Shown here: positions 20,930 to 59,034 of the stretch, piece after piece
How positions within the stretch are numbered: position 1 is the stretch's first letter
Layout of the letters: each line of letters begins with the position of its first letter
Assembly (NCBI GenBank): GCA_951406725.2
Contig: OX597826.1
Coordinates: 5,022,001 to 5,086,000 of the forward strand
DNA: 64,000 bases
Origin: Octopus vulgaris
Lineage: Eukaryota
Reading direction: 5' to 3'
Position numbers and translations under genes: made by a program
The notes under the pieces: model-generated
What the model saw: only the letters and a program-made list of their open reading frames with translations
The model's database searches: none
Told to the model about the DNA's origin: nothing

Positions 20930-22580
20930 AGCTTCATCGTAACAGATGGTAACCGTCCCATCAACGCACACACCACAGCACAGTTTCTCCGTTGATGAAC
21001 CCTCAGATGACTTTTAAGACCAGCTGCTGACTGACAAAGTTTAAAACACGAGTGACAGCTATGCAAATTTCGTCTACATCTTTGCCTGTTGGAATCCAAT
21101 TCTGAGGGAATGGGTTTTTTTTTTGTGTGTGTGAACTAACATGTATTTTAAGTCCAGATATTGTCTAACAAATGTTGTGATATATAACCCAAGTTGCAAG
21201 AAGTGGTTGCGGCTCAAGATTATTACCTACTTTTGGACATTTCGATTTTCATGTGACTTTATATGATTCACGAATCCTGCTTTGGACAACAGAAGACGAT
21301 CTCATACAATACATACACAATATTCACTGTTGGTTTCAGTTCCAATTGTTCCATTCTGACAGGATCTTTTAAGCTCAGAGCGCTGAACCATCTTTCCTTC
21401 CCAACATTTGCAACCCTTCCTAACAGCACCTCTCCACTTGTTCCGATCCAGAGCATCCATTTCTCAATCACTTTTGTTCATATCTAGTTTCTTCAGGTTT
21501 TTCATCACACAGTCATTATTCCTTCTTCCTCGGCTTATGTTGTGATCGCTTATGTTGTGTGTTGAGCTTACCGTAAAACGGCGCTTTGACAATCGCTCAT
21601 CTTTCATTCTAATAACATGCCCAACCCATCTCATTTGAGCCAAGATGACATGTTGTTCAACTGAGCAACAACTTGCCATGCAGAAAATATATGTATCTGT
21701 TATGAAACATTCCCACTTGATCTCAAGATACGTCTGAGGAACTTTTAATGAAATCTCTCCAGCATTTTCATATGACCATTGTAAGTAGTCAATGTCTCCC
21801 TCGAATACAGAAGTGCAGTTAATACACACGTTTTATAGACACTGATTTTTGTCTGCAAGGAAATACCTCTATCCGCCCTTGCTCGGGCTTTCCGAATGCT
21901 ACACTTCCCTAGCATATGTCTTTTAAGTCCAGATATTTATTGTCCAACAACTTTTGCGATGTATGACACAAGTTGCAAGAGATTATTAACTACCTGGACA
22001 TTTCGATAGTATATTTCAGCATCAAGACCACCATCTCTTGACAGTATACTTCTAAGGTAAACAAAAGTTTACCTTGTTCTGTTTACGAAAATGTTTGATT
22101 CAGAATATGTTTGTTCTGGCGCGGGAGTAAATATTACTTCGGTTTCCCCAAGACCAATTGTGAGTCCGATATGTTCACATGCAGTGGAAAATCTGTCCAT
22201 TATGTGTTGCATATCCTCCCCTGAGTGTGCCAACAAATCAGCACCATCTCAAATGAGATGGGCTGGACACGTTATTAGAATGAAAGATGAGAGATTCTCA
22301 AACCGCCCTTTTACGGTAAGCCCAATTCTCTCTGAGAAATGCTTTGAAAGTCTTTGCTTTGCAGATAAACCGGCTAAGATAAAAAATGCGACCATATATC
22401 CAAAATCTTATTCCAATTTCTCTGTTGCCAGCCTTGAAAGCGTACCAAAGCAATACAGCATAATAAATAGAGAAAACGCAGAGACAGGAATATCTCCCTG
22501 TTTGACACCGTTGTACACCGAAAATTCGTGAGATAGCTCACCATTAAAGTCTACCTGAGCTAATATGTTTCTGTAATGAG
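20930..22580 (-). pseudogene. Decayed, rearranged RTE-clade LINE (RT domain to C-terminal zinc finger)
   Basis: Minus-strand peptides: FSVYNGVKQGD; GIRFWIYGRIFYLSRF...FLRE; DLLAHSGEDMQHIMDRFSTAC; RGISLQTKISVYKTCVLTALLYS; QMRWVGHVIRMKDERLSKR; CHSCFKLCQSAAGLKSHLRVH. Contains frameshifts and stops. Confidence 0.92.
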
Positions 22581-22599
22581 AAAAGCAAGATAACTAGTA

Positions 22600-26511: not shown

Positions 26512-26815
26512 ATAACGAAGCTACAAAAGCTTACAGACAAAGACAACCATGCCGGTTCCTCGAAGAATTTGCTAGCATCCATAAGTGGAAGGATTTGACT
26601 GGACGTTATATTATTGAAGTGGAAGACAACATGAACGTCTTCCGAATTAAGGATAACATTCATGGACTTAGTGAGGTGCCGCGGGACTGTAGCCACGGTC
26701 CGAAAGCTTTCCCATATGAAGTTCGGAGGTCTGAAATTCGACTGGTTTCACGCTGTGTATCACTGAAGGAGGGGACAAAAAATACATTCCTCACTTACAC
26801 TACCAACGACTCTTG
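26512..26815 (+). CDS. Internal coding exon (304 nt, phase 1 to 2) of the same gene, DUF7043-like (CxF...W...G.Y)
   Basis: Acceptor ttttgttatttttgttcatcag| and donor TG|gtaagt. High-complexity open frame (N)NEATKAYRQRQPCRFLEEFASIHKWKDLTGRYIIEVED...RCVSLKEGTKNTFLTYTTNDS(C/W). A+AT gives AAT, splicing in frame with exon 13650-13758. Confidence 0.85.
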
Positions 26816-44776: not shown

Positions 44777-45228
44777 GCGGCGAGCTGGCAGAAGCGTTAG
44801 CAGAACGGGCGAAATGCTCAGCGGTATTTCGTCTGCAGCTACGTTCTGAGTTCAAATTCCGCCGAGATCGAATTAAGTACCAGTTATGCGCTGGTGTCGA
44901 TATAATCGACTAAAATCCGTTTGTCTGTCCTTGTTTGTCCTCTCTGTGTTTAGCCCTTTGTGGATAGTAAAGAAATAGGTATTTCGTCTGCCGCTACGTT
45001 CTGAGTTCAAATTCTGCTGAGGTGGACTTTGCCTTTCATCCTTTCAGGGTCAATTAAATGAGTACCATTTACACACTGGGGTCGATATAATCGACTTAAT
45101 CCGTTTGTCTGTCCTTGTTTGTCCTCTCTGTGTTTAGCCCCTTCTGGGTAGTAAAGAAATAGGTATTTTGCCAATCTTTACGTTCTGATTTCATATTCCG
45201 CCGGTGTTGACTTTGCTTTTCATCCTCC
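44777..45228 (+). mobile_element. Trimeric Deu-like SINE (units 44777-44977, 44978-45161, 45162-45228)
   Basis: Two identical junctions AAGAAATA|GGTATTT; the third unit is the most diverged. Confidence 0.9.
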
Positions 45229-47770: not shown

Positions 47771-47817
47771 CTCCACTATAAAAAAAATGGGTCACTTCAG
47801 AAAGTAGTGCTCTTCTT

Positions 47818-48266
47818 ATTTCTTTACTGCCCATAAAGGGCTACATACAGAAGGGACAAACAAGGCCAGACAAACGGATTAAGTCGATTACGTCGACCCC
47901 AGTGCGTAACTGGTACTTAATTTATCGACTCCGAAAGGATGAAAGGCAAAGTCGACCTCGGCGGAATTTAAATTCAGAACGTAACGGCAGACGAAATACC
48001 GCTAAGCATTTTATCCGGCGTGCTAACGGTTCTTATTTCTTTACTACTCGCAAGGGGCTAAACGCAGAGAGGACAAACAAGGATAGACAAACGGATTAAG
48101 TCAATTATATCGACACCAGTGCGTAACTGGTACTTAATTTATCGACCCCGAAACGATGAAGGGCAAAGTCGACCTCGGCGGATTTTGAACTCAGAACGTA
48201 ACGGCAGACGAAATACCGCTAAGCATTTCGCCCGGTGTGTTAACGTTTCTGCCAGCTCGCCGCCTT
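47818..48266 (-). mobile_element. Dimeric young Deu-like SINE inside one 14-bp TSD
   Basis: GTAGTGCTCTTCTT at 47804-47817 and 48267-48280; junction gctaacggttct|tatttctttac at ~48033. Confidence 0.93.
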
Positions 48267-57915: not shown

Positions 57916-58526
57916 ATAATAAATATATAGTTTAATAAATAATGAAGGGTGCCTGAATGGGATATAATGGCGTTCACCTGATAACATTGTGGATGTGAGG
58001 CTTTTGTTAAGGTCCTCGCTTCATCCAGGACTACAACTACAGGGAGATGAGCTACATGAAGACATTTCACACCAATGGTAACAACACGAGTACTCCGTAA
58101 AGAAACCTCTACTCCTGGTGCCGCTGCAGTATGGATCTGTGCCAGGCATGCCTAACACAATGCGGATGGTGGTGGCAGCAGATAGAACGCCAGACCAGTG
58201 GGAAAGCAGTCCACCCGGAAGACAGAATAGAAGACGCTTCAATCTGATACTCTTGTAACCGGGGATAAACATGTCAGTCAAGTTCCAACAATAATACAGG
58301 GGATGAGATATTTGTCACCACTACCCGTCCTATAAAACACGTCTTAGGTAATTTTTGTAAGTGAAGCGAAAATGCGGTAAAAGTTTTAACACAGTGCAGT
58401 TAGAGACGTAAGTAAAAAAGGGCAAATAAGTATGTTTTAAATAACACTCAAATACATGGCAGTAGCCATTCTGGGTGTTTTACCTTCATACCACTACGTA
58501 CATGTGTGTGTGTGTGTGTATGTATG

Positions 58527-58602
<76 letters not shown>

Positions 58603-58611
<9 letters not shown>

Positions 58612-58970
58612 GTGTACATTTAAGCACAAGAGAAAACTACATTTAAAAGGTAATTTTTACACGCCTGAAGAAGCACGGTTACTGATGAGAATTCGCTTAG
58701 CAAATTATTTTATTTGCAGAAGAAATTCGAAACCTAGGTATAACCGCCAAAAATAACAAAGTAAAAGTTTTTATTTTTCATTCCCGTCGAAAATTACTAT
58801 TAGAATGTGGTTTTGGTCGTTTTGACTGCTTCTTCAAGCGTGTAAAAATTACCTGTTAAAGGTAGTTTTCTCTTGTGTTTAAATGTACACTATTTTATAA
58901 TGAGAATATGTTGTCTATTGACTATTTATACATTCTAGGCCACTGGTGGTGATATTTCTAAGAATATTCG

Positions 58971-58976
<6 letters not shown>
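58603..58976 (+). mobile_element. Small non-coding Penelope-like (pLTR/retrozyme-type) element inserted in (TA)n
   Basis: 73-bp inverted repeat 58603-58675 / 58827-58899 (4 mismatches) enclosing a hammerhead; (TA)n on both flanks. Confidence 0.7.
58676..58746 (+). ncRNA. Intact minimal type I hammerhead ribozyme
   Basis: Stem I CGGTTA/TAACCG; core CTGATGA; stem II GAATT/AATTC extended by CTT/AAG and GCAAAT/ATTTGC; GAAA; stem III C-ctag-G within palindrome ACCTAGGT; GUA cleavage site after 58740. Confidence 0.9.

Positions 58977-59034
<58 letters not shown>

Follow-up and report, generated by a model that had tools for sequence, protein, structure and literature searches.

In this study, we explored the origin of a hammerhead ribozyme motif in the Octopus vulgaris genome, within a 64-kb stretch of DNA (hereafter the window). 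Our findings favor, with a high degree of confidence, a model where the motif belongs to an old, 5'-truncated, two-armed copy of an ORF-less hammerhead family with a monomer of ~470 bp, likely inserted into (TA)n by a Penelope-like element (PLE) acting in trans; cleavage is predicted for the dimer only, and the copy itself is likely inert. In window coordinates, the copy and its surroundings are composed of the following features.

58519 to 58606: left (TA)n tract, the likely target site, whose last TATA overlaps the end of the inverted arm.
58603 to 58675, reverse strand: inverted arm, a second partial copy running from monomer position ~393 back to ~320 and ending at the short 3' site, B.
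58673 to 58675: head-to-head junction of the arms, a 3-nt microhomology (GCA) common to both, as read from the sequence.
58673 to 58976, forward strand: direct arm, a 5'-truncated monomer copy (positions ~165-470 of ~470 bp) ending at the long 3' site, A.
58676 to 58746, forward strand: type I hammerhead motif, with a 6-bp stem I, a full core, a 40-nt stem II and a palindromic stem III.
58827 to 58899, forward strand: the direct-arm segment to which the inverted arm is complementary, with site B, the short end of the family, as its 3' boundary.
58900 to 58976, forward strand: the "tail" between sites B and A, measuring ~77 nt here and as much as ~90 nt in certain other copies, and with a homologue in the tail of a sister family.
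58945 to 58975, forward strand: conserved hairpin directly preceding site A, for which the sister family shows compensatory changes.
58977 to 59024: right (TA)n tract, whose first TA units also fit the next letters of the element itself, which blurs the boundary.

The canonical hammerhead parts recognized in an earlier note on this DNA (core, stem I, palindrome and GUA) are all in place. On reading the sequence, CGGUUA (58676-58681) and UAACCG (58741-58746) pair at six of six positions to form stem I, the core comprises CUGAUGA (58682-58688) and GAAA (58729-58732), and the stem III palindrome, ACCUAGGU at 58732-58739, leads to GUA and a predicted cut at 58740/58741. Stem II fills the 40 nt from 58689 to 58728; the three helices previously attributed to it appear in the MFE structure of the window copy, but most copies of the family form two. 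A type I descriptor matched once in the 64-kb window (58676-58746) and never in 30 local shuffles (0 matches in 30/30). The Rfam search put forward in the earlier note matched no hammerhead model at either of the two thresholds tried (27 matches at E<=1 over 10 kb and four at E<=10 over 367 nt, none of them a hammerhead), likely because stem II is so long, and the 111-nt hammerhead region folds no more stably than shuffles (z -0.20). The hammerhead call thus rests on the core, the pairing and the comparison among copies. The 73-bp inverted repeat is confirmed (58603-58675 against 58827-58899; 73 nt, 95% identity, four mismatches), as are the absence of an ORF (the longest stop-free frame of the copy has 52 aa) and the position between two (TA)n tracts (58519-58606 and 58977-59024). 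Other parts of the initial description need revision. The supposed ~370-bp unit is a monomer of ~470 bp that, in the window copy, lacks its first ~165 nt, and the inverted repeat, taken as an enclosure of the ribozyme, is a second arm of the insertion, inverted and of a different extent in each copy. The left arm does end at 58675, immediately before stem I, but this is a mere junction position, and head-to-head junctions in other copies range from monomer position 54 to 400. Overall, the window copy is an ordinary fossil: an old, damaged, truncated, two-armed insertion.

As anticipated, homologous copies exist elsewhere in the genome (2.8 Gb in 227 contigs), and they were retrieved both by DNA search and by exact patterns. 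The former gave at least 117 matches (40 of 2073 candidates scored), the best other copies being 85-92% identical, and two exact patterns gave 35 and 52 matches, with none for the reversed controls. The second pattern is exact in five of 26 independently picked copies, and the first in eight of 28 copies that are biased towards it; a rough extrapolation from the pattern matches yields ~270 segments and at least 120 ribozyme copies, and we place the family at roughly 100-300 copies. The analysis covered 72 places of these few hundred (90 loci minus 18 duplicates, with 1.5-kb flanks), a sample biased in its first 30 loci, which were chosen by likeness to the window copy. Full monomers measure 457-477 nt, with 30-35% GC, and the one tested for coding capacity (L012) has no stop-free frame beyond 42 aa; with at most 52 and 42 aa, respectively, neither the window copy nor this monomer carries the RT plus GIY-YIG ORF of an autonomous PLE. 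A search for a tRNA-like head, able to detect heads that have not decayed, found no tRNA gene in nine of nine loci. Direct head-to-tail junctions, where the 3' part of another copy precedes a monomer, occur at 15 of the 72 places, and 5' ends are spread along the whole monomer (n=113). At the 5' edge of stem I (monomer positions 158-172) lie about 10 of these 113 ends, perhaps through a mild RT stop or junction preference, with the ribozyme-based choice of loci as a confounder. A genome search restricted to exact matches found no pair of cores 454-484 nt apart, and thus no intact cis-dimer source; one locus (L105), though almost two monomers long, is decayed and interrupted.

The element had also been described as recent, a label that its divergence contradicts. 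Over 71 segments the mean distance from the column majority is 6.4%, the window copy lying near the mean at 5.7%, and pairwise identity averages 89% and peaks at 96% (2203 pairs). Octopus insertions have been termed recent at <=2%, and a distance of 0.065 has been equated with 18 million years (PMC13282606; here and below, published sources are cited for the portions available). Should that scale apply to this genome, the family would be up to ~18 million years old and the window copy, judged by its arms, ~8 million years old.

Among 60 distinct ribozyme copies, 25 keep the core, the palindrome and at least five of the six stem I pairs, although 13 of these 25 had been picked for an exact 5' half. 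In a stem alignment of 53 of the 60 (seven truncated or stem-I-broken copies were left out), 95.6% of 1166 stem cells are paired, with a single both-sided change, located in stem II: pair 10.2-11.2 (n=53) is G-C in 34 copies, A-U in 17, G-U in one and unpaired in one. This covariation is probably one subfamily change inherited many times, and pair-count covariation measures do not beat shuffles (416 and 390 of 500). A non-autonomous sister family, found at L059 (3272-3865, reverse strand) and at further loci (L142-L161), is more informative. The search for it returned at least 69 matches (40 of 266 candidates scored). Its monomer has ~480 bp, its tandems, two 3' ends and tail hairpin are as in the window family, and its copies are 70-84% identical to the query, the sister family being the older of the two. 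Its tail is homologous to the window tail (0/1000 shuffles), a result that served as the positive control of the tail comparison. Its hammerhead, in five motifs listed from 19 loci, has other letters in all three stems, a different 8-nt palindrome and GUU as the cut triplet. These rebuilt stems are stronger evidence for a ribozyme than the subfamily change in stem II. The stem covariation sought by the earlier note is hence found at two levels: stem II varies between subfamilies, and the sister family rebuilds all stems and the palindrome. The hammerhead was likely kept through selection on source elements, not on the window copy. At least two further hammerhead families were met by chance in flanks (L128, L139, L133, L135), one of a short-stem-II type and another with a long stem II, and the genome seems rich in unannotated hammerheads. 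A tail-only fragment, ~80% like the element tail (L137, oriented 2134-2250), perhaps represents a third related family.

The architecture of the insertions points to their mode of mobilization. The combination of 5' truncation, partial tandems, head-to-head inverted arms and two ends is a PLE insertion signature. The 113 terminal 3' ends fall into 49 at site A, 50 at site B and 14 elsewhere, where site B is the outer edge of the inverted-repeat arms and site A lies ~77-90 nt beyond it. A (TA)4 follows 37 of the 49 site A ends, 37 of the 50 site B ends and two of the 14 others. The suspected preference for (TA)n is thereby borne out, with 74 of 99 A or B ends against a background of 9-13% in the outer flanks. 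Of 31 head-to-head junctions 21 could be classed, and 19 of these join one end of each kind (A+B), the remainder being one A+A and one B+B, with 10 junctions unclassed; in loci picked by pattern, A+B is seen in 12 of 13 (binomial p ~0.002 at even odds, calculated by hand). Eleven two-armed copies of the sister family, sorted by eye, comprise eight A+B and three unclassed, and across both families A+B accounts for 27 of the 29 classed two-armed copies. The window copy fits this rule: its inverted arm stops at B, its direct arm at A, and the two are joined over GCA. In a test of whether both arms derive from one RNA, arm-to-arm identity was 0.909, against 0.896 to other copies, and was the higher of the two in 15 of 20 cases. 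In the hairpin directly before site A, pairing extends to 93.2% of cells in the family tails (59 of 60) and to 87.5% in the sister tails (31 of 32), with exchanges between G-C and A-U from one family to the other; the hairpin is likely an RT recognition element. The short, noncoding character, the 73-bp inverted repeat and the TA flanks of the window copy would also suit a TA-targeting DNA transposon bounded by terminal inverted repeats, of MITE or fold-back type. Yet the right arm stops 77 bp before the element end, most copies have no inverted arm, arm extent varies where one is present, 5' ends fall along the whole monomer, and tandems and a conserved ribozyme are not MITE features. The variable arms refute this reading, whose probability we consider negligible.

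We propose instead a PLE-mediated route, its steps, from transcription to joining, being inferred from PLE papers and from the counts in this genome. A tandem source copy would be transcribed as an RNA of more than unit length. The RT/GIY-YIG protein of an autonomous PLE, acting in trans, would bind the tail region and cut both strands of a (TA)n tract, and reverse transcription would start from the two freed 3' ends, at site A for one and at site B for the other, each with the help of a few bases of pairing between UAUAU and (TA)n. Both cDNAs would stop early, and head-to-head joining by microhomology (GCA here) would then create the inverted repeat. The template would be an uncleaved or re-circularised RNA, because the cut site is crossed without a break in 72 of 128 segments. 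Clustering of 5' ends at the cut was rejected, as only 3 of 113 lie within 8 nt. Read-through together with so few 5' ends argues against a cut linear monomer as template; as far as the copies reveal, it is an uncut multimer or a circle. A tail, an inverted copy and a partial tandem are PLE features (PMC8557442, PMC3846280, PMC11167929), and the PLE tail lies between two RT start sites (PMC11167929). We file the family as a non-autonomous, PLE-mobilised hammerhead element, retrozyme-like in kind, which upholds the proposal of a non-autonomous PLE-linked ribozyme retroelement through its copies, covariation, (TA)n bias and dimer-type stem III.

A classic circular-RNA retrozyme, in which dimeric hammerheads cut a tandem transcript, monomers are ligated and RT copies the circle for more than one turn, differs from this route in the template only and is compatible with it. 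The seamless read-through of the cut site in 72/128 segments, the stability of the monomers, which exceeds that of 25 shuffles in five of six copies (z -3.5 to -5.3), and the abundant circles formed by mollusc retrozymes of 350-390 nt (PMC7229834) all suit such a cycle. Nevertheless, the copies are dispersed and mostly under two monomers long, no exact double-core array occurs, the predicted folds are local hairpins (59-63% paired) rather than rods, and the PLE studied in PMC11167929 could insert without cleavage and yielded no RNA reads with ends at the cut; on balance, we treat the circle as possible but somewhat doubtful. Rather unlikely, though conceivable, is an asymmetric integration complex of two RNAs, of which the strict pairing of A with B ends would be a record and in which the stem III palindrome would act as an RNA dimerisation signal and a dimeric PLE protein would prime one RNA per start site at the two ends of a (TA)n cut. 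In five families of this genome the palindrome persists while its letters differ, and a dimeric PLE protein has been predicted (PMC11167929); against this, Naiads, which lack canonical hammerheads, make the same structures (PMC8557442). If true, the hammerheads of PLEs and retrozymes would be kept for RNA pairing as much as for cutting.

Mobilization in trans calls for an autonomous partner with RT and GIY-YIG, for which the earlier note suggested a search. Such PLEs exist in the genome, but none of those tested shares sequence with the element. In a GIY-YIG scan of the genome, 16 of 148 matches fall within frames of 781 aa, which additionally encode an RT (E 1e-6, slightly short of the Pfam cut-off) and a CxxxxCxxC linker, a motif of Neptune/Nematis type (PMC8557442). 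With copies mostly 96-99% alike, this PLE family is younger than the element. At their (TA)n boundary its copies have either a short end or a ~35-nt tail, the same two-end habit as in the element, and one locus (L049) has one of each. In this young family (L046:430-5735; L047-L053) an overlapping frame of ~479 aa, with no Pfam match above cut-off, precedes the 781-aa frame (intact at L046:2245-4587), and a putative U3-A8 hammerhead variant lies near the 3' end. By eye, putative hammerhead variants with palindromes are seen in three autonomous families. BLASTN of three element queries against 31 GIY-YIG loci gave no match to the PLEs' own repeats, and none of 30 comparisons of 3' ends with autonomous PLEs was significant (all p>=0.1); none of the four autonomous families tested shares element sequence or a homologous 3' end. 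At one locus (L088:1750-2160, reverse strand), the 3' end of an older RT/GIY-YIG PLE family is joined directly to a partial tandem of the element. Copies of that PLE family are 84-91% alike, which makes it about coeval with the element, and the join could be a template switch or a nested insertion, a lead only. A motif seemingly common to the tail of that family and the element tail was discarded, being not significant after microsatellite trimming (p 0.11-0.68). The same locus bears on the notion that the copies are simply truncated pLTRs of an autonomous PLE with ORF-bearing copies unsampled, so that no separate non-autonomous element exists. PLE insertions are mostly 5' truncated and hammerheads sit in pLTRs (PMC4209133), and the element at L088 is immediately preceded, in matching orientation, by a GIY-YIG C-terminus and 3' UTR. 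However, at 15 of 15 tandem places it is the element's own 3' end that precedes a full monomer, the monomer tested has no frame >42 aa, the L088 piece stems from another family whose other copies carry their own 3' ends, and tblastn of two PLE proteins on the family loci found remnants at only three places (L088, L114, L120). We judge this notion improbable, and retain mobilization in trans of an ORF-less family.

What the ribozyme of the window copy can do was approached by folding. Whatever the context tried, the active fold of the monomer is placed 4.8 kcal/mol above the ensemble (P ~0.0004), and two copies cofold, unconstrained, into a double hammerhead (-38.0 kcal/mol). From these folds, which favor the dimer and not the monomer, cleavage is predicted for the dimer alone, in agreement with the dimer type assigned earlier to the palindromic stem III; modeled in this way, the lone window copy is likely inert. 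In published work, a single minimal motif did not cleave and dimers cleaved at low level (PMC4209133), and cleavage was seen in one of nine dimer elements (bioRxiv 10.64898/2026.07.22.740005). Given a lone copy and dimer-only predicted cleavage, the cutting of a host pre-mRNA, once suggested for this copy, is unlikely. A search for the two host exons mentioned in the earlier note did not identify them: none of 35 selected window frames reached the Pfam cut-off, and the best candidate, 304 bp at 26512-26815 on the forward strand with favorable splice signals and 100 aa of open frame, has no Pfam or Atlas match and lies 32 kb upstream of the element. That the copy was co-opted by a host gene, or interferes with one, through pre-mRNA cleavage appears very improbable. 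It does keep the core, the palindrome and all of stem I, as well as a canonical G10.1-C11.1 pair present in only two of the 53 aligned copies, and in modeled transcripts stems I and IIa would be kept in place by the long inverted repeat with P 0.4-0.9. Yet 25/60 copies are equally intact by the same test, a distance of 5.7% from the majority is close to the mean, and stem III would need a second molecule. A host effect of the window copy is unlikely.

Three further features of the window deserve mention. Fragments at 21270-22590, in which two frames were scanned without a Pfam match, have translations that we take to resemble a LINE reverse transcriptase. A short degenerate TTAGGG array lies inside the contig at 18401-18450, and an abundant SINE-like repeat forms tandem arrays of two copies each (184 and 217 bp) at 44876-45226 and 47813-48250.

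No account of a hammerhead or retrozyme family from octopus turned up in the openly accessible literature. The term "ribozyme" has 0 occurrences in the available text and supplement of an octopus repeat annotation, whose library may hold the repeat unlabelled (PMC13282606), and 235 Hammerhead_1 matches are listed for the giant squid (PMC6962438). The family described here joins the non-autonomous PLE/retrozyme kind as a new member, distinguished by the unusual length of its stem II and its tail. Co-occurrence and pLTR homology have served as arguments for PLE mobilization of animal retrozymes (PMC7229834; bioRxiv 10.64898/2026.07.22.740005), the latter work, in its available part, sampling no mollusc. 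In octopus, an ORF-less hammerhead family itself carries the PLE insertion signature, countable across dozens of copies. Moreover, the rule of one long and one short arm, together with the tail hairpin, leads to concrete predictions for the formation of PLE inverted repeats and tails, which the young intact PLE frame in the same genome allows to be tested.

How does the family compare with known systems? With the metazoan non-LTR retrozymes (PMC7229834; bioRxiv 10.64898/2026.07.22.740005) it shares the lack of an ORF, a low GC content (30-35% here), head-to-tail repeats, one type I hammerhead with palindromic stem III per unit and coexistence with autonomous PLEs, by which mobilization has been proposed there. 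Unlike them, it has a monomer of ~470 nt, compared with ~170-400 nt in the invertebrates of PMC7229834, a stem II of 40 nt instead of the canonical 4 bp, and dispersed truncated copies in place of dimers to multimers with complete ribozymes. In addition, no pLTR homologue was found here, whereas 24 of 57 Xenopus families matched known elements. EN+ PLEs of Neptune/Nematis type, with a CX2-5CxxC linker (PMC8557442; PMC3846280), resemble it in 5' truncation, partial tandems, a head-to-head inverted copy, a tail at one end, (TA)n targeting and a hammerhead near the 3' end. The element departs from them in having no RT/GIY-YIG ORF, a tail of ~77-90 nt, about twice the 30-40 bp described for PLEs, and no sequence likeness to the autonomous families tested in this genome. 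Chlamys elements such as MRC1 (PMC8557442) are non-autonomous PLE passengers too, with pLTR-like and head-to-tail insertions and a microsatellite bias; yet, according to the available account, such non-autonomous elements generally resemble their own autonomous family at the 3' end, and canonical hammerheads are absent from most Chlamys. The Poseidon element PAc of Anolis (PMC11167929), which is autonomous and has been assayed in vitro, has start sites reported as not homologous to the cut DNA, whereas sites A and B coincide with UAUAU-like stretches that could pair with (TA)n. Still, both have a stem-loop in the tail region, an AT-rich target and templates reading through the ribozyme, and the two 3' ends of the octopus family would correspond, as in PAc, to internal RT start sites flanking the tail.
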